Shown here: one piece after another, positions 1,902 through 63,364 of the stretch
Layout of the letters: the number at the start of each line of letters is the position of its first letter
Position numbering within the stretch: the stretch's first letter is position 1
The notes under the pieces: generated by a model
Databases searched by the model: none
Told to the model about the DNA's origin: nothing
What the model saw: the letters and a program-made list of their open reading frames with translations, nothing else
Origin: a virus
Taxonomy: Duplodnaviria; Caudoviricetes
Strand: one strand, 5' to 3'
DNA: 64,000 bases
IMG/VR virus record: IMGVR_UViG_3300027007_000012
Location: 1-64,000 of that record
Program-made: the position numbers and the translations under genes

Positions 1902-2433
1902 TCGACAGACACCGCGGTATAAACCGTATGCAGATATATGAATATCGCCGCTAATGGGCGGGGAGTGGGTCTGGCGTCTCGCTGTCTTCGAGCTCGTATG
2001 TCCGGAGGAGATCGCCACACGACGGACACGTTAACTTGAGGCCAGTCCAGTCGCCATCGGACCATTCGGCCTCGTATCGATCGAACGTTGCACCGCAGGT
2101 GTTACACTTCATGGCCGTTCCCGCGAACGTGCTCTACGGAGCGGCTTAAGTCTTCGCGCGCGCCCTGGATGCCACCAGTAACGTGCCGCTTTCGCGCCCC
2201 ACCTGTCCCGACATTCATCCTCAAAACAGGCGTATGTACGTACGTACGTGCCCATATGTACGTGCAGACCATGTGACTGCAACTCACCCACACGATAGAT
2301 TTAAGATCATCCAACGTATTGTTTCTGATACGTCAATGTCACTGACAGCGGGTTTCCCCGGCTATCCGCATACGACGTGTGACTGGCATGATAATATGCC
2401 AGAACGTGTTCAACAGTGATCACTCTCATTTGA

Positions 2434-2507
2434 GCCGGGAGGGCCCGCCTGGTGCGGGCGCGTGACTGTTAATCACGAGGTGCGAGGTTCGAGTCCTCGT
2501 CCTGGCG
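2434..2507 (+). tRNA. trnN: tRNA-Asn(GTT)
   Basis: Acceptor GCCGGGA/TCCTGGC, anticodon arm CGTGA-CTGTTAA-TCACG, T-arm CGAGG-TTCGAGT-CCTCG. Confidence 0.88.
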
Positions 2508-2528
2508 CCTGAGAGTGTCAGAATACCG

Positions 2529-2562
2529 ATACACTTAATATCGATACACGTCAAGTATAGGA
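2529..2562 (+). promoter_or_regulatory. Promoter upstream of tRNA array
   Basis: ACACTTAATATCGATACACGTCAAG, nearly identical to ACACTTAATATCTTAACACGTCAAG upstream of the ligase gene; TTAATA TATA-like core. Confidence 0.6.
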
Positions 2563-2590
2563 CATTCAAAAACATAAGAAACTAGACATG

Positions 2591-2665
2591 GGGCTTGTAG
2601 CTCAGCCAGGCCAGAGCAGTCGACTCCAAATCGACCGGCCGGGGGTTCGAATCCTTCCGGGCCCA
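2591..2665 (+). tRNA. trnW: tRNA-Trp(CCA), intronless
   Basis: Cloverleaf; anticodon arm GTCGA-CTCCAAA-TCGAC; T-loop TTCGAAT. Confidence 0.92.
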
Positions 2666-2760
2666 CTTTGGGACCACCTTGTAGGAAATCGCACGGTCCC
2701 GCTACAACGGGGTAGCCTGGGGAGGTGACACGGCGCGGGTCCCTCCCGCGTCCCCCTGCA

Positions 2761-2834
2761 TGGCGCATAGGTCAGTCAGGTAGACCACCTCGCTCACATC
2801 GAGGATGCCCCCGGTTCGAATCCGGGTGTGCCAA
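2761..2834 (+). tRNA. trnV: tRNA-Val(CAC)
   Basis: Acceptor TGGCGCA/TGTGCCA, anticodon arm CCTCG-CTCACAT-CGAGG, T-arm CCCGG-TTCGAAT-CCGGG. Confidence 0.9.
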
Positions 2835-2968
2835 TCCCCCAAAACCCCGGGCTCAGCCCGGACGGGGGTGTGCGGTCCTGCTCGAGAATCGCGAACGCCT
2901 GCGGACGAACGCGGTCCGTGGGAAGGCGCTAAGAGCCGATCGAGAAGGGGGAGCGATCCCCCATCCGA

Positions 2969-3042
2969 GTGCCCGTAGTTCAGCTCGGTAGAACGCTCGC
3001 TTTGCAAGTGAGAGGCCGCTGGTTCGAGCCCGGCCGGGTACA
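2969..3042 (+). tRNA. trnA: tRNA-Ala(TGC)
   Basis: Acceptor GTGCCCG/CGGGTAC, anticodon arm CTCGC-TTTGCAA-GTGAG, T-loop TTCGAGC. Confidence 0.88.
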
Positions 3043-3131
3043 TGCGACACGGTGATCGACCCCTGCGCTCCGGCGTACAGATCGACACATCGACAGCGCC
3101 CACGGTGGGAAGTACGTGACGCCCATGCGGT

Positions 3132-3206
3132 GGGTCGGTAGCTTAGCCTGCGTAAAGCGTTCGGCTTTTAACCGAATGACCGGGGGTTCGAATCCCTCCC
3201 GACCCG
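3132..3206 (+). tRNA. trnK: tRNA-Lys(TTT)
   Basis: Acceptor GGGTCGG/CCGACCC, anticodon arm TTCGG-CTTTTAA-CCGAA, T-loop TTCGAAT. Confidence 0.93.
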
Positions 3207-3327
3207 TGGGGCGGTTGGCCTCTGGCCGCTGAGCTCGGTAGTCCCGAACCACAAAAGAATCCCAGAGGACGTTGAGTGACCGATCACTCGCGAGGTCGGG
3301 CTGGCCACCCGACACACCACACGGTGT

Positions 3328-3400
3328 GGCTTCGTAGCTCAGTTGGTAGAGCCCTCGATTTGTAATCGAGCGGCCGGGAGTTCGATCCTCCCCGAAGCCT
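3328..3400 (+). tRNA. trnT: tRNA-Thr(TGT)
   Basis: Acceptor GGCTTCG/CGAAGCC, D-arm GCTC-AGTTGGTA-GAGC, anticodon arm CTCGA-TTTGTAA-TCGAG. Confidence 0.92.
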
Positions 3401-3421
3401 TCCGTTCAGTCCACCTCCAGA

Positions 3422-3487
3422 AGTCCCGCTGGCGAGAGATGCCTGACTTTCAATCAGGTGGCCGTCGGTTCGATTCCCTCCGGGATA
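3422..3487 (+). pseudogene. Degenerate tRNA-Glu(TTC)
   Basis: Intact anticodon arm CCTGA-CTTTCAA-TCAGG and T-loop TTCGATT, but truncated D-arm and mispaired T-stem. Confidence 0.65.
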
Positions 3488-3519
3488 ATCAGGGTGCGAC
3501 CAGCGCCCAGACACGACGT

Positions 3520-3594
3520 GGCCGGACTGGTCTAAACTGGTTAAGATTCAGCACTGTGACTGCTGAGAACCGCGTTCGAGTCGCGGGACCGGCC
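3520..3594 (+). tRNA. trnH: tRNA-His(GTG)
   Basis: Encoded G-1 opposite C73; anticodon arm CAGCA-CTGTGAC-TGCTG; T-loop TTCGAGT. Confidence 0.88.
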
Positions 3595-4225: not shown

Positions 4226-4240
4226 GGAGTGGTCGTTTGC

Positions 4241-4545: not shown

Positions 4546-4574
4546 ACACCGCACTGGATGCCACCAGCAGCGAT

Positions 4575-4800: not shown

Positions 4801-6348
4801 GACTTAACGGAGTTCAGCACGTACGGAGAGAGACTTGTAGGCGGCGCGGAACCGAAAGACCGCGTCATCATCGAGTGTCTCGACAAACTCGATCCGAGGA
4901 GTTCCGACTTCATGGGAGCAATCTCATTTCTGACACGAGAGCCCTTCGACGATATCGGCGTCGGGAAGACATCCCTGCGAGAGATCGCTGCTGAAACACT
5001 CGATACAGACGTCAGTACGCTCCGCGATCACGAGCGCGACTACGGCGACCTTCCCAGCGCGATCGGCCATGTGGCCGCCGAGACGAACCGCCTCGTCCCG
5101 AGAACGGATGTAAGTCTTGGCGACCTGTACCGGAGATGCCACCAGATACGTGACGCCACGGGAGACGAGGGTGGCCGACTGATCCGACAGGCCCTCTCGG
5201 ACTACAAGGAGCCCAAGTGGGTCGCACACGCGTTCCTCGGTAAGAAAGGGGTGAGCTTCGGCGTCGGCGAAAAATCCGTCGTCAGCATCCTCTGTAAGGA
5301 GCACGGCATCGATGACTCGCGACGGGCGCTGGCACTGAACCCCCGAGTGGTCGATCTGTGTGCGACAATCGCGAGTCCCGAGAGCTACCACAACCCGATC
5401 ATGCAACCACTCTGCGGGCGACCGTTCCTCCCCATGCTGGCGAAATCGAAGCCGATCCCGGAAGACCCACGGGCGGAGTGGATGATCCAGCCCAAGTACG
5501 ACGGGGCACGCATCCTCGTCCACTACAACACCGCCGACGACGGCATCCTCCGGGCGTTCAGTCGGAACGCGAACGACGTGACGAACAGCCTCCCCGAGCT
5601 GCGCGAGCTCGAGGATGTGATCACCGCCGAGGGACAGTACATCTTCGACGGGGAAGCGATCCCCTACAAGGACGGGGAGCGCCAGCCGTTCCAGCAAGTG
5701 ATGACCCGGTTTGGTCGCCAGGAGGATGTCGACGAGCAAGAGATCGACATCGAGTTCAAGTTCTTCGACCTGGTCTACGCGGAGAACGAGTGGCCAGCCT
5801 ACGACGGGGACGTGTCCAAGATGACGGCGGGCGGACGATACTTCCTGTTGTTCTGGCTATTCGCCCATGACCACACGGACTGGGTCGCACCGTCGTACAC
5901 ACCCATGCTCGACGAGGACCTCGTCAGTCACTACCAGGAGTTCCTGCGAGACGGCCTTGAAGGAGCGGTGGTCAAACGCGTCGACGCACCCTACGAGTTC
6001 AATCGGCGCTCACCACACTGGCGGAAGATGCTCCCGACGAAAGAGAACGTCGAGCTACGCGTCGTAGCCGTCCACGAAGGAGAGAACAGCAACGCCGGAA
6101 TGGTTGGCGGGATGGAACTGGAGACGGAAGATGGAACGCCCGTTGGCCGTGTTGGTGCCGGTATCGAAGACTACGACGGCATCAAATGGGAGGAGCGGGA
6201 CACGGTCGTCGACGAGATCGTCGAGGTATCCTGGCGCGAGCTCCAGGCCAACGACGACGGAACCTACGCGCTCCGATTCCCCAGCCTCGAAGCGTTCCGC
6301 GAAGACAAGGACGAGGCCGACACACTCGACAAACTCAAAACCCTGTGA
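4798..6348 (+). CDS. lig: ATP-dependent DNA ligase
   Basis: Motif I QPKYDG, FSRN, IFDGE, FDLVY, EGAVVK, WRKM; OB-fold LRFPS. Confidence 0.95.
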   Translation: MDLTEFSTYGERLVGGAEPKDRVIIECLDKLDPRSSDFMGAISFLTREPFDDIGVGKTSLREIAAETLDTDVSTLRDHERDYGDLPSAIGHVAAETNRLVPRTDVSLGDLYRRCHQIRDATGDEGGRLIRQALSDYKEPKWVAHAFLGKKGVSFGVGEKSVVSILCKEHGIDDSRRALALNPRVVDLCATIASPESYHNPIMQPLCGRPFLPMLAKSKPIPEDPRAEWMIQPKYDGARILVHYNTADDGILRAFSRNANDVTNSLPELRELEDVITAEGQYIFDGEAIPYKDGERQPFQQVMTRFGRQEDVDEQEIDIEFKFFDLVYAENEWPAYDGDVSKMTAGGRYFLLFWLFAHDHTDWVAPSYTPMLDEDLVSHYQEFLRDGLEGAVVKRVDAPYEFNRRSPHWRKMLPTKENVELRVVAVHEGENSNAGMVGGMELETEDGTPVGRVGAGIEDYDGIKWEERDTVVDEIVEVSWRELQANDDGTYALRFPSLEAFREDKDEADTLDKLKTL

Positions 6349-7564: not shown

Positions 7565-7846
7565 ATGAAGACAGAGAGACAACTACAGAGGATGTTAGCA
7601 AATCGGAGATGTGCGGGATTTGAACGTACGTCGGCTGACCCCGATCGGCGGCGTCATATCGAGTACAACCTACTTCGCCAGATTCTGGACCTTGACAGCG
7701 ACCAGGACGTGTGCCGTGAGTGCGCTACGATCTCGGACACCGACGCAACGTGGGATGACCCTGGTCTGTGCCCGGCGTGTTCCACTGGGGTGCAGCTCCG
7801 TATCAATGCCCACGCTGCTGGTGGCATCGATGTGGAGGGTGATTAA
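7565..7846 (+). CDS. Zinc-finger protein
   Basis: CREC ... CPAC; contains a reverse motif copy at 7818. Confidence 0.55.
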   Translation: MKTERQLQRMLANRRCAGFERTSADPDRRRHIEYNLLRQILDLDSDQDVCRECATISDTDATWDDPGLCPACSTGVQLRINAHAAGGIDVEGD

Positions 7847-11332: not shown

Positions 11333-11711
11333 GTACAGAAAACCACCCCTGGATGCCACCAGCAGCGCCGGCGAACAACGTCGAAATGCACTTCATCCTC
11401 ACATGAACCCCCGAAAGACCTGCGAGAACTGTGGAACAGAGCTGGAACTGTCGATCGTCGAGGGAGAGTACGAACCACTCCGTGCGGTGGTCGAGTGTGA
11501 ATGCGACCGGGTCCCTGTCGGCGGGATATACCTCTGTTGCTCGTCAGTAGACTGGCCCAGTGGTTGATAACATTTCTGACAGATATCGAAACAAGGCGGT
11601 TTCTATGTGACGTTATACACGGCTATAGTAAGCCTATTAACTCCATTTTCTATATACTATTTGATACCATGGGAAAACTGGTATATTAGATATAGCGTCT
11701 GTATCATACTG

Positions 11712-13821: not shown

Positions 13822-16800
13822 ATGGCCTGGGACACCCTCGATTCATTCGAAGACCAGTCACTCTCTGAGTACGACGTTGGATCGACAGCAGCGTACGACA
13901 TTGTCTCGACCCAGGCGACCGACGGTACGTACGCACTCGAAGGGACAGACGGGTCGTCGTGGGCGGACCTCATGTCCACGTCGGGGCCGGAATCCATCCC
14001 GCACGGATCGACCTTCCGCGTCGACGTGTGGATCACCGACTCGAACGACTGTGCGATCCTCCGCTTTGGTGCGGCCGATTCGGGCAACTGGATCGGTGCC
14101 GGGTACAACGGGAACAACGGTGGCTGGCAAATATCGCGTGCTCTGGGCGGCGGGTGGTCACAGATCGGTTCTGGTGGTTTCTCGCCACCACTGGGTGAGT
14201 GGATTACGTTCGAGGTCGAGTGGGGCGTAGCTTCTGATGACGACGTTGTCATCCGCGCGTTCGATTCCAGCGAAACAGAGCTTAGTAGCGCGAGCGCGAC
14301 CGCCCCAAGCGACCTTCGGTCGAACGATGGGTTCGGCGTCGAATACACCTACCAGTACAGCGGTACTGGTCCAGTCTACTTCGACAATATCCGCATCGAA
14401 ACGACAGCGGACGAGGCGACGGTTGATGTCGGGTCCCTCTCACTGAGTGCTGTCGAACCCACGGCGACGTTGGATGCGACCGTGCCTGTGAGCACACTCT
14501 CCGGGACTGTTTCTACACCGTCTGTTTCGGCAACGGTGGGGGCAACGAGTACGTCGGCCGACACTGGTGTCCTCGACGTACGTGCACAGGATGCAAGTGG
14601 TGACACCCCAGGAACAACTGTAATAGCCGACGTGGGAACGCTCGCGTCGACAGCCCAGGACGCAGCCGCCAGTCCCGGCGGATTCACAACCAGTGCTGAT
14701 GTCGCCTCGGTCACCAGTGTCGCACATGATGTAGCAGTTACTGCTGGATCGACGAGCGCCACAGCCGCTGCTGGTGGCATCGCAGTGTCGGGTGTCGACA
14801 CGTCTGGGTCGAGCGGGGTAGTTATCGCGACATCGACGGTTGGCGGGACGGTCACTGCACTTGACCCCACCACTGAAGGAGCGGTAACGGCGACTATGGA
14901 GGCCGCTCCAATCTCCGTCTCGGCACCGTCGCCGACGACTGGGACGGCCTCGTCGATATTGACACAGACGATCACGTCGTCGGTCACAGCGACCGATGTA
15001 AGTGCGACCGCAGGTGGGACGGTCACAGCAACAACTGACCAGGGGACCATCGCGGCAACAGCCCTCGAACCGGTGATCGCGACTGGCGATACACCAACGG
15101 TCGTGCATGTCGGCGCGATCACTCTCTCGGCGCCGTCTGTCACAGCGAGCACTGGCGGTGTGTCTGCTACGGCGGGTGTTGGTGAGATCTCGGTCACTGG
15201 GTCTGATGTTTCGACCGGCGGCACCCGGACGATCACCGCAGAAACCGCCACGCAGACTGTGACGGTGCCCTCCCCGGATGTAGTCTCCGGTGAGAACTCA
15301 CTGTCGGCTGATACCGGGTCGGTCAGTGTTTCGGCATACAGCCCGTCGGCGTCGGCCGGGGCAACGACAGCCACTGGAGAGGTAGCAAGTATCTCTGTGT
15401 CCGGAGTTGACCTTAGTGCCTCCTCCGGCGGGTCGATTGTCTATACCGGGACCAAGAGCGCGACTGTCACCGCCCAGGACCCAACGGTGTCTGTCGGAGG
15501 GGCCACGGCGACCACCGACATCGGGGCTCTCGCGGTCTCCATCCCAACGCCAGGAGTCGGAAGTGGCGTCATAGCTGCGACATCAACCCTGAGTGGGACT
15601 GTCGCCGCCCAGGACCCCACAGCCGCAGTTGGCGGCGCATCGGTGACGGCGGACACCGGAATCATGTCTGTATCGGCCCCCGAGCCAGGTGCTGGCTCTG
15701 GTATCATCGCGGCCACGTCAACCGTCTCCGGCACGGTCACCGCACAGGACCCAACGGCCACGGGCACTGGGGCGGTTACCGTCGGTGCAGAAGTCGGGAC
15801 GATAGCAGTTGCTGGACAGGGCGTCGATGCGACCCCCGGAGAGACCGCTGTGACGCCGATTGTCGCGACCATTTCCGCTTCTGCGCCGGACCCCGCTGCG
15901 ACCTCATCCACCACGATCTCGGCCGATGTGGGGACGGTCACGGTCACGCCCATCGACCCCTCGATCACCGTCTCGTCTACAATCGATGCAGACGAAGGTG
16001 TGCTGACGGTCACGGCCACTGATGTGACCACACTCCTGTCCGACTCGACTGTCCTCGATACAGGGACAATCACTGTCGCGGCCCCCGAACCGACAGCGTC
16101 GGCCGGTAGCGTCACTGGAGCTGGTGAGACCGGAACGGTCACTGTGGCGGCCCCAGGTCCAACCGCGATAGCCGGCCCAGCGTCTGCAACGACCGGGGCG
16201 GCGACGGTCACGACGGCCGCCCCCGATGTGACGGCCACTGGCGGTCCTACCACCAGTACGGCCGAAACTGCGACGCTCGCGACGACCGCCCCGAGCCCGA
16301 GCGCGGCGGTGGGATACACGGTTGGTGCGGAGACCGGGGCGTTAACGACGAGCGCGCATGACCCGGTCGCGTTCGGAGACCGTGTCGCATCGGCAACGGT
16401 TGGCGAGCTGGCCGCCAGCGCCGCCGACCCGACGATCACCGGCGTAACGACTGTCACCGTCGACGAGGGGACACTCGCATCCACCGCGCCGGACCCCTCG
16501 GCCGTTCCCGGCGGTGTCGCGGGCTCTGTTGAAGTGGGGACACTCGCGACAGCGGCACAGGACGCCGGCCTCGTCCTCGGGACGACGACGATCACAACCG
16601 AGTACGGCGCACTCGCGGTCAGTGGCCAGGATGTTGCAGCGGCACCAGGTGGCGTTTCATCCACCGCCGACGCGGGCACGATTACGGCGATTGCCCCTGA
16701 CGCCGCCCTCACCCCTGGTGTCACACCCGTGACCACCGAGGTGGGGACTCTCGCCACCACGGTGCTCGACCTGGATGCAGCCGGCGGCCCGACGACCGGC

Positions 16801-17574: not shown

Positions 17575-17909
17575 TGACCAAAGAAAACCAAGACTTCGAG
17601 TTGCACAACGGCGAGATCAAAATCCCCCAGTTCACCGTCGACAAACCAGACGGGTCGACGAAAGACCTCACCGGGTACAAGGCCCGGTGGATAGCGATCG
17701 ACCCCAAAGACGACGAGATCGTGATCGACTTGCATACGGACACGGATAACGACATCACGATCCCCAACCCTGCTGGTGGTATCGTCGAGGTCAGGGTAGA
17801 TCTGACTGGAAGCTCCGAGCTGTACAACTCGTACCGTCACGAGCTCTACGTGATCGACACCTCCGGGGAGCCATCAGTCGTCGCTACGGGAGAAATGTTC
17901 GTGAAATAA
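17574..17909 (+). CDS. BppU-N-like Ig-fold tail/baseplate-associated protein
   Basis: DLTGY ... ITIPNPAGGIVEV ... YRHELYVID pattern; coupled to the fibre gene. Confidence 0.55.
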   Translation: MTKENQDFELHNGEIKIPQFTVDKPDGSTKDLTGYKARWIAIDPKDDEIVIDLHTDTDNDITIPNPAGGIVEVRVDLTGSSELYNSYRHELYVIDTSGEPSVVATGEMFVK

Positions 17910-18134
17910 CATCACCCCAGACGGTAGCCGACTTGTTCTCACACGGACCCTCTCGGCCGGTAACGGCCCGATACACACGGATTCACCCTGACCACATCGA
18001 TGCCACCAGCAGCGCCTGATAACCTAAGCTATCAGAATATTTAATACTGTTTAACGTATATCAAAGAATACACATACGGGAACGAAGTGTCGGATAGAAC
18101 AGCTTCCCGTGTATGGTTCGCACAATAGAGACAT

Positions 18135-30172: not shown

Positions 30173-30332
30173 CCGACGTATTTCGAACACCCAACAAAAC
30201 CTTTGTGGACTATCTATGACAGGCTCTGTTCGCGGAGGACAAGAGTAAGTTACGCTGACGGACTCGATGTCACCAGAAACGTTGTACGTACACACTTTCG
30301 ACGTTTAAGTGGGTAGCGGCCCATATAGGACT

Positions 30333-30626
30333 ATGATTCGCATCGAGTACGATGAGGCGTACCCATTCCTGATGGGGTATCTCACACGTAGTTTCGAGAA
30401 AGAGATCGACGGACAGCGATGTGGCCCCGAGACGATCATGTCTGCGATGAACGCCGAGGGTCGCGAACTCATAATGACCGACCATCAGGCGAAGTGTGTG
30501 ATAGCGTTGCTTGAAGACGGGTACGACGTCGAGGAGTTGGACAACACGAAGGAGGCGGTCGAGAAGTTAGAACAGTTGAAAGATGATCTGAACACCGCAC
30601 TGGATGCCACCAGCAGCGGAGAGTAG
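30333..30626 (+). CDS. Hypothetical protein
   Basis: ATG 30333 after a TTTAAG promoter; ends LNTALDATSSGE, which is encoded by the dispersed motif. Confidence 0.6.
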   Translation: MIRIEYDEAYPFLMGYLTRSFEKEIDGQRCGPETIMSAMNAEGRELIMTDHQAKCVIALLEDGYDVEELDNTKEAVEKLEQLKDDLNTALDATSSGE

Positions 30627-36093: not shown

Positions 36094-36476
36094 TGCGGGC
36101 GCGATCGCGGCGCTGGATGGTCGTCACGGACCCGGACACGGACTGCGAGTCGCCGGTGTTTCGCCGCATCCCGTCGAAGTTGGAGGCGCACAAGCTCGCA
36201 CAGTTGACGGTGCGCGCCTACGACGATGGGACCAGCGCCGGCGTTGTGGAGGACCTCGGAAAATGACGGGGGACGTTCGCCGACGAGAGCACGTCTACGG
36301 GAGGGGGCGGCTCGTCGTCTACGAGGGGAACCCGAACACGTCGACAGCGTTCGTGGCCGGGAAGCCGGTCCCGAACGAACCCTGACAGTTTCTGTTTTTG
36401 CGCGCCGCCCGCGTCGTCGATTCACCCAGACCGCACTGGATGCCACCAGCAGCGGCTCTCGCCCCACATATGACAG

Positions 36477-39082: not shown

Positions 39083-39400
39083 ATGCCCCGATTGATCGAG
39101 CGCATGGGTTGCGTTGCCGACCGACTGAGTGACGAGTGGGAACTCGACGACATCGTAATCGAGCAGTCGGCGACAGCCACGGCGCTCTATCGCCACGAGT
39201 CCGGGGCGATCGTCATGTGGTCGGCCGACCCGGGGCATCGCGTTCAGCTGTGGGAGCCAGACGGCGCGATGGAGACCTGGTTGGACGACGACGTGGTCGA
39301 CCTGGATTGCGCGGCCGAGACGGTCCAGACGTGCATCGAGATGGTCGAATACGAGACCAGCACATCGATGCCACCAGCAACGTCGGCGCCACGTCCGTAA
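39083..39400 (+). CDS. Hypothetical protein
   Basis: After a GAAAACTGGTATTTA promoter; C-terminus carries the motif copy at 39368. Confidence 0.55.
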   Translation: MPRLIERMGCVADRLSDEWELDDIVIEQSATATALYRHESGAIVMWSADPGHRVQLWEPDGAMETWLDDDVVDLDCAAETVQTCIEMVEYETSTSMPPATSAPRP

Positions 39401-40287: not shown

Positions 40288-40337
40288 GCATCGCTGCTGG
40301 TGGCATTCCGAGCTCGGTTCGATTCCGAGGCGATGTG
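40288..40337 (+). ncRNA. Miniature tRNA-like element C
   Basis: GCATCGC/GCGATGT 7-bp stem, TGC-TGGTG-GCA mini arm, CTCGG-TTCGATT-CCGAG T-arm. Confidence 0.65.
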
Positions 40338-44395: not shown

Positions 44396-44715
44396 ACACG
44401 GGAACCGACCCAGGGCTACCGATTTCGCGCCACGCCCGTCGTGAAAACCACCGCACCGATGCCACCAGCAGCGCCGGCCCCGGCGTGAATCGTGCACATC
44501 GCGACCAGTGTGCCTCGACGAGCGGCGACCAGGTTTCGCGAGTGGAACCCCTACCCCGTAGACGCCGCCAACGAACCTCCGAGAGCTGGGCCAGATCGCC
44601 GTCGTGAAGGGCCGTCGTATCAGGTGTGAATACTTGCGGGCCCCGGCACTGAATCCAGGGACACAGCGGCTATGCGATGCTCTGGAACTACCAGAGTTAT
44701 CAGCCGTTTTACATA

Positions 44716-45460: not shown

Positions 45461-46495
45461 GAGCGAGAGCGAGACGAGAGCAGCAGAGGAGGGACGATGA
45501 TGCGCCCCGAGTCGCCGATTGAGTGGACTGGCGAGGCCCACCTCGTCACGGTGAGCTGTAGCCGCTGCGGGAGCACGATGAGCGTCGACGAAGATACGGC
45601 GCTCTGGTACGACGAGCAGGGACGCGAGCACGTGTGCGAGGAGTGTGAGTGAGATGCGCCGAGTGCGTACGATGCTGCTGGCCGCGAGAGTCGTCGCTGG
45701 GATCGTCGTGTTCCCGATCGCGCTGACCGCCGCGAGAGCTCGGGCCCGGGTGGTCTGATGAGCTGTCTCGATTGCGGGTCGACGTCGCTGGCGAGCGAAC
45801 GAGTGGACGTGGTCGGGCGCCCCGACGAGCGGGTGACGTACTGCGAGAACTGTGGAGAGGTGCAGTACGTGGATGTGATTCGATGATTACGCTGCTGGTG
45901 GCATTGGTGGTTGCCGGGCTGGGCGTGTGGGCGTTCCTGCTGATCGCGAGGGAGCTGTAGCGATGGACTGGTGCCCGGAGTGCGGGTCGATGGCCCGCGT
46001 CGACGAACGACGGTTGGAGCGCCAGGACGACAGCGCGCTCGCCAAGGAGGTGCTCGACGTCGTCTGCATGCAGTGTGAGTACGAGGGCGAGAAGCGTCGC
46101 ACAGTGCCCGCCGTGTTCGAGCGGCGGCCAGCAGAGACGGGGCGGGGCGTGAGCGAGCGCGAGCCGGGTCACCCGCTCGACCGCTGAGCGCCCCGGTTTC
46201 GCGTTCCGCCCGCGCCGACCCCTGTTTCCGGTCCACGAGCAAATAGAGTTCGCGACGCGTGTGCATACGCTCGTCTCAGCACGATCCCCCAGGGCCTCAC
46301 GGCGACGGGCTCCTCGGGCCATCACCCCTCCCCTGTGGATGTTGCTCACGACTGACTGGGAGCACACGAACGCACGCCTCAGCGCCTCTACGCGCACTTT
46401 CTGTCTGGGGATTTATCATTGGCTTCGACCTTGATTTCCGCTCCACGCGGCCGGACGCGGCAACCCGGCACCAGAAGTATCAGCCGCTTTACATG

Positions 46496-47618: not shown

Positions 47619-48342
47619 GGAGAGGGGTTGCCGATTTTTTTGGTGCTGTCCGTGAGCGCCGGAAACGCGCGCCGCCCGTCGCCCGTCTTTCGTGTGTGCA
47701 ACCGCATGGCTGGGTGAGAGAGCGAGCAGGAGATGAGCAGGAGCGTGTGCAGTAGAGCCCCCCGCTCGCGGGCCCCACCAAGAGCTGGTGCGCGGCCGGG
47801 ACCCATTTAGACCTACTTTTACCGCGACACTGATTTTCAGGGATGGGACCGAAACGAATCACTATACTATCTCACATCAATCCAGTCTTTGTCTTCAAAC
47901 TCGGTGGCACAGATGTTACACAAATCGATGTCAACTTCTTTCGTTGTCCCGTCCTGGCGGTCAATCTCAAGGTGATGTTCAGATCCAGTCCTATCGTTAC
48001 AAACTGAGCACTCCATTTTTAGAAAGATTACAGGTGAACCGTTTTAGTCGTATTCCCCCTGATCAGTGTCCCACTAAGGTGTTTTCGTGGTGTTGATTCG
48101 ATTTGATCTACTTTTTACGGGCACCCTGTTTTCAAGCAGTCGCCTCTGGTGGCATCCAGTGCGGTGACATGAACCAGGTCCATTGACCCTAATGTACCCT
48201 TATTTCGAAGCATAACGAAAATTATATATCCGTTCCCTGACTATCTCCATATGTCCTCCTTGGAACGGAGTGACGCATTGCATGAAGCGAACGAACGACC
48301 GGCCTGGAGACCCGGTCACGACCCCGAGAAGCACCGCTTCGG

Positions 48343-48672
48343 ATGCCACCAGGAACGGTGATTTTGGTGAGTGAAGCTGACCAGTTCACCCCCGAGATGG
48401 TGGAACGTATCGAGGAGTTGCAAGATGATGAGTCGGTCGATTCCCGCAACACGAACAGACACGACGAGGGCTGGATCAGGTTCTACGTCGAGTGTCCTGA
48501 CTGTCACGTCCCGATGGCTCGCACGACGGTCGAGGCGAAGGACGTCGACGAGACACACTCGCGATCGACGCATCGATGCATCTGTCCTGAGTGTCACGCA
48601 GTCCAGACGAACCTGACTGTCTACCGCGAGACCTACCGCTTCGACGAGAAGCACCGGAGGGACGATGCGTAA
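48343..48672 (+). CDS. Zinc-ribbon protein
   Basis: CPDC ... CPEC; the start ATG is the ATG of the dispersed motif. Confidence 0.65.
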   Translation: MPPGTVILVSEADQFTPEMVERIEELQDDESVDSRNTNRHDEGWIRFYVECPDCHVPMARTTVEAKDVDETHSRSTHRCICPECHAVQTNLTVYRETYRFDEKHRRDDA

Positions 48673-53181: not shown

Positions 53182-53194
53182 CACATGCACCCAG

Positions 53195-53500
53195 ATGCCA
53201 CCAGAAGCGGGAGGAATCGTGAGCAGTAAACGCGCCGGTCTGTCTCCGAAACAGCTCGGGGCACTCACCAGAGGGGGACTCGTCGAGGTCGACGACGGGA
53301 CGCGTCGCTCGGTCGAGCTCTATTGTGAACAGGATGATGCCGAGGTGTGGTCTCGGATTGCCACCACAGACGGTGGCGAGGAGTTGACGGTCCTTTCGTT
53401 CCCGGAGGATGTCTGGGAAGACGTTCTCGACGTACTGGGCGTCGAGGATGGCCGAGACAAGATCAAGGTCGGGTCGATGGTGTGGGTACAGCGCGGCTGA
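53195..53500 (+). CDS. Hypothetical protein
   Basis: Likely start at the motif ATG (MPPEAGG...); a reverse motif copy lies just after the stop. Confidence 0.55.
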   Translation: MPPEAGGIVSSKRAGLSPKQLGALTRGGLVEVDDGTRRSVELYCEQDDAEVWSRIATTDGGEELTVLSFPEDVWEDVLDVLGVEDGRDKIKVGSMVWVQRG

Positions 53501-53809
53501 CGTTTCTGGTGGCATCCAGGTGATGGGTCGATATTAAAAATTCTTATAGTTGCCAACTTCTCGAAATAAGAGATCTGTATAGAAGAGGCGTTTAAACCTG
53601 TCTGAAGGGCTTATCTGTGAGGTAATCCGAAAGTTATAATGAGTTGGGGGACCGAGTGTATGTTACCAGATATGGGTACACAGATGGGGGCGGTCGACAC
53701 GCTGTTGATCACCCCGAACCCCCACGAGACACGAACGCACTACGAGCTCCTCGAGATCGGGCGCGAGGAGTTCCATGGAACTGTTACAGTCGTTGGACTG
53801 GCGTCGTAG

Positions 53810-55640: not shown

Positions 55641-55731
55641 AAAAAACCCCACTCGATGCCACCAGAGGCGTATGTACGTACATACGCGCCCATACGTACG
55701 CCCCTCCTGGCACCCCTGAAGCCCTCCCCAG

Positions 55732-58737: not shown

Positions 58738-60498
58738 ATGAGTGAAGCAGAAACACCACCAGATGATACACCAGCCGATGAGTCAGAAGACGACGTCGAG
58801 ATAACGGCTGAGGTCGAGTCGGCCGACGGGACAGCGGCGACCGTCACACGGTCGGCATCGCTGGCCGAGGTCGTCTCGGAACCGCGAGAGATCCTCGACA
58901 AGGACCAGTTCGAAACGGACTTCGACCTGTACGAACGCCTCCTGACGATCGACTCCGAACTGGCCGGGACTGTCCGCGCACAGGCACAGTTGGCCTCTGG
59001 CTTCGAACTGATCCACCCCACCACAGAAGGAGACAGTGAGGAGCCGAGCGATTCGGACGTTACGGCGCTCAAAGACTGTAAAGAATTGGTCCAGTTACTC
59101 GACCTGGACCTCTCACAGCCGTCGATGTTCAAGGGCATGATCGCTATGGGCAACGACGTCTCGAAGATCATCTTCCGTGACGGGGAGGGAGTGACCGGCC
59201 TCCAGTCACTCCCCCTCCGCTCGCTGACGATCATCGACGAGGATACCCAGCCCGGTGTACAGAACGCGATCGCAGAGGCGAGAAAGGCCGTCGACGGCGA
59301 CGAGGAGATCGACCTCAAGACGTACACCGACAACCTCCCCGATGCGGTTGTGCAGGATGCAGACTACTACGTCCTGAACGAGGGCAAGAAGGACATGAAG
59401 ATGATCGAGTCGTGGAAGATCCTTCATCTCGCCGCCGAGCGCCGTAGCAACTGGTTCACGGACAAGTTCGACCGGCGGACCTACGGCGTGTGGGGTGCCC
59501 CACGAATCGAGCCGACGAAGTTCCCCCTCCAGGCCAAGCACAACACGCTCACGAACAAGGTGTCGATGGATGACTCCCTGATCGCCCGGGAGATCTACCA
59601 CATCGACGTCGCGACGCTGTTCGGACACATCAACAACGACGAGCGCCGAGAGGAGAAGGCCAAAAAGTACGCGTCCGACCTCAAGGAGACGCTGGAAGGG
59701 ATGGGGCCCGACGAGAAGCCCATCCTTCCGGACGAAGTAACTGTCGACGTCAAAGGTCCCGAGGGGAAGGCCAAGGAACACGGTGACTTCCTCGACCTGA
59801 TGAACGATTCCATCATGCACGCGCTGACGTTCAACGTCTCGGGCGTCGGGCGTGACGCTGGTGGTCCGTACATCGGGAACCGGCCGGCGAAGGATACGTC
59901 GCTGAACAACGTTCGTCACCTTCGCGAGACGATGGGCCGACAGCTCCGAAAGCTGTTCAAGATCCACCTGCTCCTCAAGCACCCCGAGTGGCGCGAGGAC
60001 ATGGTCGACCCGGAGGACGTTTCGACCTGGAAACTCCGGGACGACATCACGCTCCCGAAAGTCGAGTGGGCGCAGATGGAAGATGGCGACCTCGAACGTG
60101 TTGTGAACGCGGCAACGAAAGCGTACGAGTCCAAACTGATCACGCGGAACGAGGCCCGCGAGATGTTCGGCCACGACCCGATCCCGGACGACGAGCTCGA
60201 TCGCCTGTTCCAGGACCAGTTCATGAACATGGAGATTCAGGACGAGTTCAACCGTCGCCAGCAGGAGCGCCAGCAGGAGATACAGGATCAGGAGCAGGAG
60301 ACACAGGACACGGACGAGGAGGAAGAAGACGCAAGCGTCGCCGAGACAGCCGAGACCGCGCACTCGATGCCACCAGCAGCAGTCGCCGAGGACATCGACA
60401 ACGACGAGTTCCGAGAAACGCTGACGGATTCGTTCGACAGCGCGATTTCGAAGATGAACGCGTCGTTGAGCCAGGGAGGTAACGATGAGTCTGCGTGA
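58738..60498 (+). CDS. Portal protein
   Basis: 586 aa after terL; WKILHL ... YGVWGAPRIE, ITRNEAREMFG; acidic tail. Confidence 0.75.
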   Translation: MSEAETPPDDTPADESEDDVEITAEVESADGTAATVTRSASLAEVVSEPREILDKDQFETDFDLYERLLTIDSELAGTVRAQAQLASGFELIHPTTEGDSEEPSDSDVTALKDCKELVQLLDLDLSQPSMFKGMIAMGNDVSKIIFRDGEGVTGLQSLPLRSLTIIDEDTQPGVQNAIAEARKAVDGDEEIDLKTYTDNLPDAVVQDADYYVLNEGKKDMKMIESWKILHLAAERRSNWFTDKFDRRTYGVWGAPRIEPTKFPLQAKHNTLTNKVSMDDSLIAREIYHIDVATLFGHINNDERREEKAKKYASDLKETLEGMGPDEKPILPDEVTVDVKGPEGKAKEHGDFLDLMNDSIMHALTFNVSGVGRDAGGPYIGNRPAKDTSLNNVRHLRETMGRQLRKLFKIHLLLKHPEWREDMVDPEDVSTWKLRDDITLPKVEWAQMEDGDLERVVNAATKAYESKLITRNEAREMFGHDPIPDDELDRLFQDQFMNMEIQDEFNRRQQERQQEIQDQEQETQDTDEEEEDASVAETAETAHSMPPAAVAEDIDNDEFRETLTDSFDSAISKMNASLSQGGNDESA

Positions 60499-61354
60499 CC
60501 GTCTCGACAAGCACCTGATCGCCCTCGACGAGACACACGAGACGGTCATCGACGAGTACATTCAGGATGCGTTCGCCCAGGGTGTTAGCGAGGAAGTCAC
60601 ATGGCTGAGCAATCTCGGTGTTCGGACGGCAACGCGCGATCCTGAACCGACAGACGCTCTCGAGGAGATCCGAGCACGAACGGTCGACAGAGTCGCCCGC
60701 TACGACGAGTCACTCCGCGAGAGTGTGTTCGAATCGCTCGACGAGTCGAAAGGGAGTACGTACGAAGTGATAGCCCGGCTGTTCGACGATGGCCTCACGG
60801 TTGGGGCGGGAGACGAGACACACGACGTCAAATCGGTCAGTGCGGACGGGTCGGCGTCGATCGTCTCCCGGGCGGGAACCGTCGCCATGACGCTCGAACC
60901 GTCCGCGTATTTCGACTGGGTAAGCGCAGTCGCAGTCGTCGAGGCGCGAAGCGCCGGCCGGGTTGCCGCCCAGCTCGGGTCTGACGACGTCATGGGACAC
61001 GTCTGGGTCGACCCACTCGACGAGCAGACGACGCCAATGGCCGCCCGTCTCCATGGTGAGACGTTCGGTCGCGATGGCCTCCCGTTCCATCCACCTGTCG
61101 TCTATGGCGGGCGATCCCGTGTGTGGCCACTGTTCAAGGCATCGTCACCACAGGCCGAAAAACTCCCCTCCGTGGATGCGCTCGTGGGCCAGCGGGAACG
61201 CTGGTTCATCAACTACTCGCGGATGCAGAACGGTGAGCTCCCGGAAAACGACTGGGCACACGAACCAGTTGTCGATGAGGAGTACAACCTGGCGTTCATC
61301 TACACGCAGTTGCTCCCGCGAGACTACGCACAATACCTCCCCACCAACGAATAA
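60485..61354 (+). CDS. Head morphogenesis (MuF/SPP1 gp7-like) protein
   Basis: After the portal; degenerate W...D..T...ARLHG...PFHPP...R motif. Confidence 0.6.
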   Translation: MSLRDRLDKHLIALDETHETVIDEYIQDAFAQGVSEEVTWLSNLGVRTATRDPEPTDALEEIRARTVDRVARYDESLRESVFESLDESKGSTYEVIARLFDDGLTVGAGDETHDVKSVSADGSASIVSRAGTVAMTLEPSAYFDWVSAVAVVEARSAGRVAAQLGSDDVMGHVWVDPLDEQTTPMAARLHGETFGRDGLPFHPPVVYGGRSRVWPLFKASSPQAEKLPSVDALVGQRERWFINYSRMQNGELPENDWAHEPVVDEEYNLAFIYTQLLPRDYAQYLPTNE

Positions 61355-61620
61355 TGTCCCCCAACAAACCGCTCGCAGACTGGCAAAAGCTGACGATCAT
61401 GGCCCAGGCCCCGTTCCGGGGCAACCGGACAATCGCGAAACGCGCTGAGTGTTCGGTTTGGGCCGTCAGAAAGTACCGCTCGCTGATGAAAGAAAACGGA
61501 CACGCTCTCGACGTTGGTGTGACGGAAGAATACGATGAAGCCCTCGTCTCAGAGGAAGCGATGGCGATCTTCGACACAATCGTCGACGAAGGGCTGAACC
61601 AGGAACGGGGGCGGATATGA
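61354..61620 (+). CDS. Small HTH-like protein
   Basis: NRTIAKRAECSVWAVRKY. Confidence 0.55.
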   Translation: MSPNKPLADWQKLTIMAQAPFRGNRTIAKRAECSVWAVRKYRSLMKENGHALDVGVTEEYDEALVSEEAMAIFDTIVDEGLNQERGRI

Positions 61621-61847
61621 TGCCCCGGGCGAAGGACGTGGTGAGTGTCCTCCTGGTCGGCGCCGTCACGAGCGTGTGGCTCTACCAGACGCTCGACCCG
61701 GCGCTGGCCGAGGACTTCGCCGTCAAGGCACTGGCGCTCACGTTCGCCGCTGCTGGTGGCATCACCTTGTTCGGGCGGGGGACGATGCAAGCGGCAAAGA
61801 GAGTGGCTGAATCGACACTCCGCCCGCAAGAGAAGACAGACGAATGA
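61617..61847 (+). CDS. Small two-TM membrane protein (holin-like candidate)
   Basis: Two hydrophobic segments and a basic C-terminus. Confidence 0.5.
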   Translation: MMPRAKDVVSVLLVGAVTSVWLYQTLDPALAEDFAVKALALTFAAAGGITLFGRGTMQAAKRVAESTLRPQEKTDE

Positions 61848-62257
61848 GGCTGGTCAAGCAGGAGAGTTGGAACGACTGTGCTCCTGCGTGTTTAGCGATG
61901 GTGACTGGCGTACCGATTACAAACGTCAAAGCGTTCGTCCCGGTGCCGACGACCCACGCGGAAATGTATTCGTTTCTCTTTCGCCGTGTCGACGATGTCC
62001 ATCTGATCACAATCCTCGACGAGATCAAGATCCGCGACCTCAAAGAGCGACGTGACCTGTTTCGTACCAACCGACCATTCGAGGAACGGACGATGATACT
62101 CACCGTCGCAGCACCCTATCCGGAGGTATTGTGGCACGCAATCGTCGTTCACGAGGGAAAGGTCCTCGACCCGACCGACGAGTGGCGCGACATAGATGAG
62201 ATCAATGGCGTGAGCTGTACCTGGGGCTTCGACATCGAGCTCGACAGCGACCTGTAG
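61844..62257 (+). CDS. C39-like cysteine peptidase
   Basis: Q...DCAPACLAM, WHAIVV, VLDP. Confidence 0.75.
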   Translation: MRLVKQESWNDCAPACLAMVTGVPITNVKAFVPVPTTHAEMYSFLFRRVDDVHLITILDEIKIRDLKERRDLFRTNRPFEERTMILTVAAPYPEVLWHAIVVHEGKVLDPTDEWRDIDEINGVSCTWGFDIELDSDL

Positions 62258-62338
62258 ACCTATCAGAGAAGATAGTTCTATATCGGTCGAACCACCAGAC
62301 AAGTAAGCTTTTTAGCAATGTAACGTATTTGGTAATAT

Positions 62339-63364
62339 ATGCAAGCTGTCGTAGATGCAACTGGAAATGCACCCAGCCTGTCGCCCCTCAACGCCCGTCG
62401 GTCCCGATTCACCCTCCCGGTCGCCGGAGAAACAATCATCGAGCGTGTGGTGAACGGGTTGGTCGACATCGGCGTCGAGCGGGTCGCCATCGTGACCGAT
62501 GAAGACTCTATTCGGACGGTCTTCGGCGCGGAGCGTGGGGTCGACCGACTCGGGTTGGAAGACGTCGAGCTGTGTTTCATCCCACACTACTACGGCGAGA
62601 CAGCGTCGAAGACACGAGGACTGGCCGAAGATACGGGGTTCCTGTGGGTTCGTGGCGACACGCTCTATGACTGGGAGTCCCTCGCGGAGCTCGCCGAGCA
62701 CGACTCGGCGCTCGGGTACGTCCCCCATCCACACACGGCGACCCACGGAAAGATTCAGATCAACGGTGATGACCTGCGAGCGACGCCCGGGGAGTACACG
62801 CACTCGGGCGCACACCTGGCCTACGCGTACAAGTTCCCACCCCGAGCCCACGAATGGGACTACGGAATCGATCCCATGACAGAGGAACTCGCCACACAGA
62901 CCGACTCGGAGAGCGTCGCCATCCGGTGGACGCCCATCGAGAACCCTGCTGACTACTTGGCGGCGAACCTCGAGCGAGCCGCTGCTGGTGGCATCGATGT
63001 GGAGGTTGACGGAGCGGCAACCGTGATCGGGCCATGTGTCGCCGGCGAGGACGTCACGGTCGGGCCCGGCGCAGTGATAGAGTCGTCGGTCCTCATGGAC
63101 GGGGCGACAGTTGGAGCCGGGTCGTACGTCGGTCACTCGGTGGTCGGCGAGGGAGTGACGATCGAGCAGAACGTGACGACGAACACACGGTCGGCCAGCT
63201 GTGAGACTGTGGTCGCCGAGTTTGGTGACGAGCGTGTGGACACGGGACGAACAGAGTTCGGCGCAATCTTCGGCCCAGGGTCGACAGCCCAGGCCGGGTC
63301 GACCGTCCTCCGAGGGACCACCGTCGAGACGGGGCTCACACTCGAACCAGGGTCCGTCAACTGA
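62339..63364 (+). CDS. Sugar-nucleotidyltransferase-like protein with a left-handed beta-helix (GlmU-like), possibly inactive
   Basis: LPVAGETIIERVV ... GVERVAIVT, RGDTL; hexapeptide repeats IGPCVAGEDVTVGPGAVI; the GxGTR loop is absent. Confidence 0.75.
   Translation: MQAVVDATGNAPSLSPLNARRSRFTLPVAGETIIERVVNGLVDIGVERVAIVTDEDSIRTVFGAERGVDRLGLEDVELCFIPHYYGETASKTRGLAEDTGFLWVRGDTLYDWESLAELAEHDSALGYVPHPHTATHGKIQINGDDLRATPGEYTHSGAHLAYAYKFPPRAHEWDYGIDPMTEELATQTDSESVAIRWTPIENPADYLAANLERAAAGGIDVEVDGAATVIGPCVAGEDVTVGPGAVIESSVLMDGATVGAGSYVGHSVVGEGVTIEQNVTTNTRSASCETVVAEFGDERVDTGRTEFGAIFGPGSTAQAGSTVLRGTTVETGLTLEPGSVN

Follow-up and report, generated by a model that had tools for sequence, protein, structure and literature searches.

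A provirus of about 147 kb carries about 46 sites (about 1 per 3.2 kb) with a long asymmetric DNA word, and in the closest relative of this virus the word stands at the same places with TG-CCACCAG replaced by TA-CCACCAG at 35 syntenic sites (22 + 13). As the places are kept and one letter is switched everywhere in the relative, the pattern suggests that a sequence-specific factor reads the DNA, and we tentatively, with somewhat less than even confidence, regard the word as the putative recognition site of a DNA-binding factor of this virus lineage. The window, as used below, is the whole stretch of DNA analysed, 64,000 nucleotides corresponding to positions 1 to 64,000 of the IMG/VR record IMGVR_UViG_3300027007_000012.

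The motif word and its enrichment

Within the window the 10-mer ATGCCACCAG occurs in 21 exact copies, 13 on the + strand and 8 on the - strand, where dinucleotide shuffles gave 0.04 copies on average and never more than 1; the enrichment reported in a preliminary description is thus upheld, with its count (20 copies, 12 + and 8 -) corrected by one. Over the complete record of 88,656 bases (88.7 kb) it is the commonest 10-mer (n = 27), and the excess holds under a codon-aware null, in which synonymous codons were shuffled genome-wide and intergenic bases were shuffled as well (mean 0.44, maximum 3). The right part of the provirus, beyond the IMG/VR record, contributes 19 further copies. The full word, T-S-G-A-T-G-CCACCAG-N-A-R-C-G, is non-palindromic and describes an asymmetric, bipartite site of about 16-18 nt, with a constant half formed by T(-2), CCACCAG, A(+8), C(+10) and G(+11), a free position +7, and a variable half on the upstream side that reads S-G-A-T-G in the studied virus and C-A-C-T-A in the sister type. 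Full GATGCCACCAGCAGCG is present in 10 window copies, and the longer word ACCGCACTGGATGCCACCAG is common to four, as had been described before.

The provirus, its host and the origin of the motif

The studied record is the left part of the provirus, which IMG/VR divided. The provirus is myovirus-like and sits in the genome of an uncultured Haloarculaceae-like archaeon; its temperate, integrated state is indicated by an integrase gene and by the host genes that flank the element, and nearly all virus genes lie on the + strand. A second motif-bearing contig, considered as an unrelated virus, was rejected as such, since it represents the right half of this virus. A single provirus is thus spread over two IMG/VR records, a point of importance to users of those records.

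The motif belongs to the virus and is not a host repeat, an alternative that the preliminary description had raised. Across 401 Halobacteria genomes motif enrichment was absent (core matches numbered 0-26 per genome and mostly stayed below the reversed-pattern control), and core matches were not clustered in the five genomes checked, all of them among the genomes richest in core matches or furthest above the control. In 9.2 kb of host flank there are 0 copies, versus about 4 predicted from the density in the virus, and 0 copies were found in the cultured haloviruses ChaoS9, phiH, PhiCh1 and HF1. The same observations make it improbable that the sites are read by a host protein, with the two variants representing two host strains or species. 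Such a reader would agree with the insertion of both virus types at the same host locus, with left flanks 94% identical, and with the outcome of the search for a viral reader described below; but the host chromosomes are not enriched for the motif and the cultured haloviruses lack it, and the main argument, a variant shared with a supposedly unrelated virus, collapsed because the contig in question is simply the second half of this virus.

Placement relative to genes, promoters and hairpins

About half of the sites are intergenic, where 8-18% would be expected (binomial P = 2e-6), namely 15 of 27 in the record (18% expected) and 9 of 19 in the right part (8% expected). Many follow a stop codon by 5-26 nt, and some precede an AT-rich promoter box by 17-33 nt (Table 1). 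Copies inside genes occur in three frames and on both strands, which agrees with the earlier statement that the motif lies between and within genes in different frames. Intergenic sites often have a conserved hairpin behind them, forming a recurring motif and hairpin unit.

Relative to transcription, the intergenic sites of this virus type are sense-biased (17:7) and those in genes are evenly divided (11:11). It is hardly credible to us that the sites function at the RNA level, as signals for processing, stability or protein binding near the 3' ends of messages: the sense bias, the position close past stops and the hairpin often found next would fit, but nearly all genes are on one strand and yet 18 of the 46 copies (about 40%) are antisense, and the antisense copies in genes are conserved and switched like all others.

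Table 1. Motif copies in the window, with one decayed copy and one internal control; positions are those of the window, and the last column gives the corresponding place in the sister type.
Position	Strand	Sequence	Location	Neighbouring elements	Sister type
2168..2183	+	GATGCCACCAGTAACG	Intergenic, 56 nt upstream of start of minus-strand Zn-ribbon gene 1951-2112	GTACGTAC hairpin about 50 nt after	Syntenic copy, TA type
4557..4572	+	GATGCCACCAGCAGCG	12 nt past stop of 4390-4545	2 nt before ATG of Zn-ribbon ORF 4575-4745	Switched
5135..5150	+	GATGCCACCAGATACG	Within ATP-dependent DNA ligase gene 4798-6348		No alignment spanning site
7813..7828	-		Intergenic, 18 nt upstream of start of gene 7846-8244		Switched
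11352..11367	+		20 nt past stop of family B DNA polymerase gene 8780-11332
14766..14781	-		Within gene 13822-17574, read A-A-G-G-I		Switched, synonymous (GGC to GGT)
17768..17783 (control)	-	GATACCACCAGCAGGG	CCACCAG copy without NARCG		Identical in both types
17999..18014	+		Intergenic, about 27 nt upstream of AT-rich promoter-like box	Box precedes UvrD-like helicase gene 18135-20003	Switched
30266..30281 (decayed, 1 mismatch)	+	GATGTCACCAGAAACG	Right border of 20.6-30.3 kb island	GTACGTAC directly 3'	Perfect TA-type copy
30603..30618	+		Over last codons of gene 30333-30626	Long hairpin 30640-30690 after	Switched, L-D-A-T to L-T-T-T
36439..36454	+		Intergenic, between T-run/GC-rich element and promoter-like AT box	AT box upstream of GHKL ATPase gene 36561-38225
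39367..39382	+	GATGCCACCAGCAACG	23 nt before stop of gene 39092-39400		Switched
40292..40307	-	AATGCCACCAGCAGCG	26 nt past stop of 39905-40270	Adjoins T-arm-like stem-loop	Switched
44458..44473	+		Intergenic, 63 nt past stop of 44018-44395
45890..45905	-	AATGCCACCAGCAGCG	22 nt upstream of start of gene 45927-46187		No homologous region
48141..48156	-	GATGCCACCAGAGGCG	Intergenic	Divergent pair with 48342..48357	Switched
48342..48357	+	GATGCCACCAGGAACG	14 nt upstream of GTG start of gene 48367-48672		Switched
53194..53209	+	GATGCCACCAGAAGCG	At called start of gene 53195-53500		Motif absent
53501..53516	-		Directly past stop of 53195-53500 (10-mer core 5 nt past)	17 nt upstream of AT-rich promoter-like box	Switched
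55655..55670	+	GATGCCACCAGAGGCG	15 nt past stop of 54960-55640	GTACGTAC hairpin directly 3'; terminase gene downstream	Switched
60366..60381	+	GATGCCACCAGCAGCA	Within 3' part of gene 58738-60498
61748..61763	-		Within gene 61617-61847, read A-A-G-G-I		Switched, synonymous
62980..62995	-		Within nucleotidyl-transferase/hexapeptide gene 62339-63364		Switched, I to S

Over the whole provirus the sites are divided 28:18 between the strands, with no polarity and no switch along the genome. Programmed single-strand nicks or gaps, made in virion DNA by a virus-encoded site-specific nickase, are unlikely on this ground, known breaks being confined to one strand or to the coding strand, and no nick motif is known to cluster just past stop codons; in their favour are the long, asymmetric and dispersed word, the conserved places of the sites, the haloarchaeal precedent in the pleolipovirus HRPV-3 and the virus's own ligase gene.

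The spacing of the sites is slightly evener than random (CV 0.73-0.82 versus 0.95, P = 0.03-0.2), as would be expected if a virus-encoded primase, ParB-like or GHKL (MORC-like) protein used them as anchor or loading sites to condense, partition or prime the 147-kb genome. The use of both orientations, the coverage of the whole genome, an AEP primase gene, a GHKL ATPase gene in each provirus half, and a ParB_N gene with a convergent motif pair just downstream (one of the two without NARCG) point in the same direction. We nonetheless hold this role to be quite unlikely: the spacing is only weakly regular, neither the preference for gene ends nor the sense bias among intergenic sites is expected of anchor sites, ParB-type sites are normally palindromic and clustered, and the two virus types have ParB-like and GHKL proteins of 85-90% identity, with no obvious change of specificity.

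The concerted switch in the sister type

The sister type is colinear with the studied virus and about 80% identical, and the conservation at orthologous places in a close relative, on which the preliminary description had made its proposal depend, holds. Within one genome all bona fide sites share the same variant, and CCACCAG copies without the 3' NARCG part are unswitched in the relative. Comparison of the two types delimits a footprint in which T(-2), the core, A(+8) and CG(+10, +11) are 100% kept, with flanks 55-67% identical; the 5' flank of the core has often been replaced with indels and the 3' flank is conserved.

In genes the switch has an amino-acid cost (D-A to T-T twice, R-C to Q-Y, I to S and I to M), and since it forces such changes in three frames, selection acts on the DNA. 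The ATG of the motif had earlier been taken as the likely start codon of two genes, and the comparison upholds neither assignment. At 48343 the relative has CTA and the gene call starts at GTG 48367, so that the ATG of this switched copy is not a conserved start codon; at 53195 the motif is wholly absent from the relative.

Several homology breaks between the types fall exactly at a site (4574; in the relative 5026, 32519 and 38441). With CCACCAGC, the reverse complement of E. coli Chi, inside 14 of the 21 window copies (the number given previously) and a UvrD-like helicase only 61% identical between types, these breaks could suggest recombination hotspots, either Chi-like sites for the viral SF1 helicase or boundaries of module shuffling. 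We judge such hotspots very improbable, as the association of breakpoints with the motif is not significant once intergenic preference is allowed for (P = 0.19, 0.07) and host genomes are not enriched for the motif. The match to Chi itself looks coincidental because position +7 is free, so that the Chi octamer is not the conserved unit, and because the copies show no strand polarity along the genome.

In the studied type the switched position is a G, and the record encodes a DpdA-family protein (74588-75817; Pfam PF23859, E = 1e-20) whose gene contains two motif copies. The sites might on this basis be targets of viral DNA modification, one base per site being exchanged as a mark by a DpdA-like guanine transglycosylase. 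This is very unlikely: the sister type has an A at this position and yet the DpdA proteins are 90-95% identical, and known DpdA enzymes modify a high fraction of G in short contexts and are not known to act on 16-nt words.

An improbable but more novel idea is that the motif is a virus-wide 'address code', the variable half of which is rewritten in concert and not site by site, by templated conversion from a master copy or through a programmable (nucleic-acid-guided) reader; the guiding factor might then be an RNA from the recurring motif and hairpin unit. Such a code would explain why each genome has one variant and why the 5' flank is replaced with indels and the 3' flank conserved.

Candidate function and reader protein

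If the motif is a protein-binding site, every copy would be bound by a monomeric or two-domain protein, or by a ribonucleoprotein, and the likeliest job of this factor would be genome-wide transcription control of the provirus. The bound factor could form a roadblock, or silence transcription, at the ends of genes and in front of promoters, in the manner of the Cluster A mycobacteriophage immunity repressor, and the two motif variants would then represent two immunity or specificity types.

The preliminary description had proposed a cis-site for a virus-encoded protein. The viral cis-site under selection at the DNA level stands; for the protein, no reader was identified among the HTH, Zn-ribbon and other diverged or type-specific candidates compared between the types. 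The wHTH protein adjoining the integrase is 95% identical between types and has the same HTH in both, and the HTH_10 regulator is 52% identical overall and yet has an identical recognition helix. Other diverged or type-specific proteins are circumstantial candidates only, namely the Zn-ribbon 4575-4745, the protein 41417-42019 and a double-HTH protein of 308 residues that is restricted to the sister type.

About 46 defined sites are now available with a natural specificity switch between sister viruses, comprising 35 pairs with built-in negative controls, and the TG and TA site pairs are a direct handle for finding the reading factor. As repressor roadblocks, the sites would constitute the first stoperator-like immunity system known from outside actinobacteriophages, and also the first archaeal one; as nicks, marks or anchors, they would give a large halovirus a genome-wide feature that is new.

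Comparison with known systems

Very little is known of any regulatory or structural 'grammar' in the tailed viruses of Archaea. Programmed single-strand interruptions occur in T5, phiKMV-like and tf phages. In HRPV-3, 27 GCCCA sites are present and discontinuities were found at 13 of 19 tested (PMC3384331). The present motif shares with all of these a conserved word at many fixed places in a viral genome; however, theirs mark one strand or the coding strand and ours is on both, and the HRPV-3 word has only 5 nt and was linked to physical breaks. The repeats of halovirus HF2 (7 + 2) are strictly intergenic and AT-rich, carry BRE/TATA promoters, are conserved in place among relatives and have been proposed to bind viral regulators (PMC8707807). 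They resemble our sites in being dispersed in a tailed halovirus genome and conserved in place, but the present word is GC-rich, has 46 copies, about half of them in genes, and is absent from HF1. The earlier statement that archaeal viruses have no described equivalent therefore needs qualifying by these two cases, neither of which matches this one. Chi and the 'dialects' of DNA uptake sequences are likewise short asymmetric words with lineage variants differing by 1-2 bases, but they are abundant in the host chromosome and this motif is not.

Among known systems the array most resembles the 'stoperator' arrays of mycobacteriophage repressors. According to two sources on Cluster A mycobacteriophages (PMC6550527; PMC9283540), these phages have 20-30 asymmetric stoperators of about 13 bp, genome-wide and many in short intergenic spaces, related phages have syntenic sites with a consensus that differs between immunity types, and the repressor (L5 gp71-type) binds as a monomer through two domains. 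Stoperators are mostly in one orientation and mostly intergenic, so the antisense fraction of our sites (about 40%) and the roughly half of the copies inside genes count against the analogy, although intergenic enrichment is strong; the archaeal host, the genome size and the longer word are further differences. In common with stoperators, many copies of one asymmetric site are spread across a whole temperate genome, the consensus differs between relatives at syntenic sites, and the bipartite word would fit a monomeric two-domain binder.

Abundance and anatomy of the motif

We counted 21 copies of the 10-mer ATGCCACCAG in the window (13 on the + strand and 8 on the - strand), so that the preliminary description, which had counted 20 exact copies, was right about the use of both strands and slightly low in number. 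One hundred dinucleotide-preserving shuffles of the window gave a mean of 0.04 copies. Across the full 88,656-base IMG/VR record that holds the window, ATGCCACCAG, at 27 copies, outnumbers every other 10-mer, and its 12- to 16-mer extensions likewise head their k-mer lists. Using the codon-aware null that had been proposed as a check, which permutes synonymous codons across the genome and shuffles the intergenic bases, we obtained a mean of 0.44 copies and a maximum of 3; the observed copies lie far above both nulls and the enrichment is therefore an effect neither of composition nor of codon usage.

The aligned copies give a non-palindromic 16-base word, T(-6) S G A T G / CCACCAG / N A R C G (positions count from the first C of its core, CCACCAG), with a C/A-rich, G/T-poor tract at -17 to -7 upstream of the core and two upstream sub-forms, …CACTGGATG… and …CACATCGATG…. 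Because position +7 is free, the resemblance to Chi that had earlier been remarked on appears coincidental, and a role of the sites as recombination hotspots is not favoured by their association with breakpoints, which was not significant. We also considered the motif as a tRNA-like 3' end (…ACCA) and rejected this, as there is no complementary acceptor strand upstream and T-arm-like stems lie beside two sites only. These stem-loops, of the GGTTCGATTCC type and with flanking complementary strands, adjoin the two copies concerned.

The virus also has a second dispersed element, a ~35-nt hairpin based on GTACGTACATATG…CATATGTACGT. It is exclusively intergenic, is shared by the two halves of the virus and its sister virus (see below) and lies directly 3' of the motif in several places, for example at 55656; it could serve as a terminator or processing signal, or belong to a small RNA.

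Two records of one provirus and its sister virus

Gene products of the window include a tyrosine integrase, an ATP-dependent ligase, a UvrD-like helicase, a GHKL ATPase and a family B polymerase with 33% identity to that of the HF1-group haloviruses. Through a protein of the portal region we reached a colinear relative of 89.6 kb with ~80% DNA identity (type B, carrying TA-CCACCAG, the virus of the window with TG-CCACCAG being type A), which has sixteen tRNA genes where the window has an array of nine and in which the intein of the large terminase, bearing a LAGLIDADG domain, is absent.

A 58-kb contig has no DNA similarity to the window, yet contains 19 copies of the same ATG word, as if an unrelated phiH/ChaoS9-like myovirus shared the motif and a host factor read it. 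This was ruled out by two contigs: on one metagenome contig of 320 kb, type B sequence continues straight into the homologue of the 58-kb contig, and a 17.8-kb contig links the final 3.9 kb of the record, at 100% identity, to the opening 11.2 kb of the 58-kb contig, at 99.99%, leaving a gap of 52 nt. The two records are thus halves of one virus, and once they are joined the main support for a reader supplied by the host is gone. The type A virus is at least 146.8 kb long and has 46 copies of ATGCCACCAG; consistent with the join, one of the record's proteins is on file from a 154,791-base contig as well. IMG/VR rates the record of the window (88.7 kb) as 72% complete and the right half (IMGVR_UViG_3300027007_000030, 58.1 kb, flagged as a provirus) as 55% complete, and the type B record (IMGVR_UViG_3300027007_000025) covers just the left 89.6 kb of a provirus that extends further. 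A 701-residue protein of the right half differs from its 395-residue type B counterpart by a second intein-type insertion.

Type B is integrated, its left flank carrying cellular genes (an ABC transporter, an acetyltransferase and a flavoprotein dehydrogenase); as the dehydrogenase is 74-76% identical to Halosimplex proteins, the host is an uncultured Haloarculaceae-like archaeon. The first ~125 bases of the window have matches of 80-125 nt, at 80-93% identity, in ~393 of 401 haloarchaeal genomes, and a match in nearly every genome indicates host DNA at the left integration junction, a locus at which both virus types are integrated. Neither this junction nor the motif gave ARAGORN or Rfam matches.

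An island of the window, type-specific and of lower G+C (0.53-0.55), encodes a 1380-residue Eco57I-like N6-methylase, a 1122-residue SNF2 helicase/PLD nuclease fusion and a 321-residue unknown protein; it contains no motif copy, its right border falls exactly on one, and type B has a different island in the same location. A 482-residue gene, beginning within the window and found in type A but not in type B, has a paralogue pair in the right half and is by BLAST the sole protein common to both halves. Its cellular homologues in Halorussus and Haladaptatus, named glycosyltransferase, lie among sugar-metabolism genes, and it is probably an auxiliary surface-glycan gene.

A concerted sequence switch at syntenic sites

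Type B has a single copy of ATGCCACCAG and 41 of TACCACCAG, mostly C-A-C-T-A-CCACCAG-N-A-R-C-G. In a site-by-site alignment of the left part, 22 type A sites correspond to type B sites with TG-CCACCAG replaced by TA-CCACCAG, and in 44 kb of the type B right half, rebuilt by contig walking, the switch is seen at 13 of the 15 alignable sites. Conservation at orthologous positions in a close relative, which the preliminary description had proposed to examine, was thus found, the motif being kept in switched form at these 22 and 13 sites. Comparison of 15 strictly paired sites shows no change at T(-2), the seven core bases, A(+8), C(+10) or G(+11); position -1 differs in all 15, and positions -8 to -3 are only 20-47% identical between types against 55-67% in the flanks; the word therefore consists of a constant half and a lineage-specific half. 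Between genes, the sequence on the 5' side of a site has often been replaced, indels included, and that on the 3' side aligns well.

Five copies of CCACCAG lack the NARCG part, and four of them are the same in both types; the fifth (ACTCG) is switched. Two full-consensus sites are of the TA type in both viruses, and may be unconverted remnants or be read by a different form of the factor.

The switch also bears on a mark linked to DpdA, the DNA guanine transglycosylase family. The record carries a gene of this family (Pfam PF23859, E = 1e-20), which suggests a 7-deazaguanine-type modification of the virus DNA; such a mark at the motif is nevertheless unlikely, because type B, without the G, keeps near-identical DpdA genes. 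Sites of genome organisation, partition or priming would fit the even coverage of the genome, although the spacing is only slightly more regular than random (CV 0.73-0.82 vs 0.95, a weak effect), and the virus encodes GHKL, ParB-like and AEP proteins; these, however, are 85-90% identical between types. A strict periodicity of ~3.3 kb is likewise only weakly supported.

Placement relative to genes and selection on the DNA

Using our own codon-usage gene caller, we found nearly all genes on the + strand and 15 of the 27 record copies between genes, where 18% of the DNA lies (binomial P = 2e-6). Many copies follow a stop codon by 5-26 nt and a few precede AT-rich promoter-like boxes by 17-33 nt. 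Intergenic copies are biased to the sense orientation (sense:antisense 10:5 in the record and 7:2 in the right half), and copies inside genes are not (7:5 and 4:6); overall, 40% of the sites are antisense and half are inside genes.

Copies inside genes occur on both strands and fall in three reading frames. The switch is synonymous where the frame gives A-A-G-G-I (GGC to GGT), and elsewhere it forces amino-acid changes, which bears out the earlier proposal that selection acts on the DNA and not on the peptide. Within genes, antisense copies show the same conservation and switching as the others and, transcription being essentially one-directional, this argues against a purely RNA-level role. 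Nick or gap sites are possible, with a haloarchaeal precedent in the GCCCA sites of HRPV-3, but both strands are used here without polarity, unlike in the known cases.

Coordinates of motif copies and other features in the window, the full record and the right half
Feature	Numbering	Position
Left junction, host DNA	window	1-147
wHTH protein beside integrase	window	181-798
tRNA array	window	2434-4315
Type-specific island	window	20650-30270
Beta-rich protein	window	41417-42019
Large terminase gene	window	55732-58491
Terminase intein	window	~56058-57172
482-residue gene	record	63374-64822
DpdA-family gene	record	74588-75817
HTH_10 regulator	record	79810-80484
~35-nt hairpin	window	2230-2275, 30640-30690, 38497-38535, 45217-45255, 55668-55700
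~35-nt hairpin	record	65181, 87661
T-arm-like stem-loop	window	40308-40345
T-arm-like stem-loop	record	71800-71850
Copies 5-26 nt past a stop codon	window	4558, 11353, 40297, 53506, 55656
Copy 5-26 nt past a stop codon, beyond window end	record	71781
Copies upstream of promoter-like boxes	window	18000, 36440, 53506
CCACCAG without NARCG, same in both types	window	17773
CCACCAG without NARCG, same in both types	record	72952
CCACCAG without NARCG, same in both types	right half	6799, 41887
CCACCAG without NARCG, switched	right half	13173
TA type in both viruses	record	88296
TA type in both viruses	right half	~25.2 kb
Switch forcing D-A to T-T	window	30604
Switch forcing D-A to T-T	record	82447
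Switch forcing R-C to Q-Y	record	75289
Switch forcing I to S	window	62985
Switch forcing I to M	record	75666

Distribution in haloarchaea and other viruses

Abundance in host chromosomes had also been proposed as a check, and neither enrichment nor clustering was found. The core CCACCAGNARCG was counted in 401 species genomes of the class Halobacteria and gave 0-26 matches in each, generally below a reversed-pattern control, and five genomes among those richest in matches or most above the control contain no motif clusters; the idea of a host repeat was rejected on these two results. The 9.2 kb of host DNA beside the type B provirus contains no TACCACCAG, where about 4 copies are predicted from the viral density. 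The motif is absent from ChaoS9, phiH, PhiCh1 and HF1, and ChaoS9 has no comparably over-represented word. In the viral and metagenome collections scanned, the motif followed by the companion hairpin was found in these two virus types alone, apart from chance matches, and an exact 16-mer scan of genome contigs gave scattered single chance matches among the matches listed. No description of the word was found in the literature, a search with the motif string giving only unrelated mouse primers.

A probable lineage-specific recognition site and its comparison with known systems

To judge from these sequence comparisons, the motif is likely to be a virus-lineage-specific DNA recognition site. Most economically, it would be recognised by a DNA-binding factor that is sequence-specific, has two reading parts and is specified by the virus lineage. 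Such a reader was not found among the candidates considered. Between types, the wHTH protein adjoining the integrase shows 95% identity and an unchanged HTH, and the HTH_10 regulator is 52% identical with an identical recognition helix. The small Zn-ribbon ORF at 4575-4745, right after site 4558, is 55% identical, and at its locus type B encodes an additional protein of 308 residues, bearing two HTH domains and lacking a type A counterpart; the beta-rich protein is 46% identical and matches no DNA-binding fold. The 482-residue protein was rejected as reader, given its glycosyltransferase-named homologues in a sugar-gene context and its absence from type B.

The favoured role of the factor would be genome-wide transcription control of the provirus, as in the Cluster A mycobacteriophages, in which the immunity repressor binds 20-30 asymmetric sites across the genome ("stoperators") and heteroimmune relatives have a differing consensus at syntenic sites (PMC6550527); this repressor is a monomer whose two domains read the asymmetric word (PMC9283540). 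The array resembles stoperators in the temperate lifestyle, in the copy number and density of sites, in the asymmetric word, in intergenic and post-stop placement, in the sense bias of the intergenic sites and in the variant switch, and perhaps also in leaving free of sites the 9.6-kb island of the Eco57I-like methylase and SNF2/PLD fusion, whose expression a lysogen may need. It differs in that half of its sites are inside genes and 40% are antisense, the antisense sites going against the orientation rule of stoperators. By this analogy, a full stoperator-like system, with both the factor and its genome-wide control of provirus transcription, is a tentative proposal that may well prove wrong. 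The closest repeats described in haloviruses, the promoter-bearing intergenic repeats of HF2 and the GCCCA discontinuities of HRPV-3, are unlike the motif in copy number, composition, placement and strand use. The array would be a dispersed viral recognition-site array in an archaeal virus with an unusually clean natural specificity switch, and the stoperator system appears to be functionally its best analogue, as a likeness rather than an established membership.
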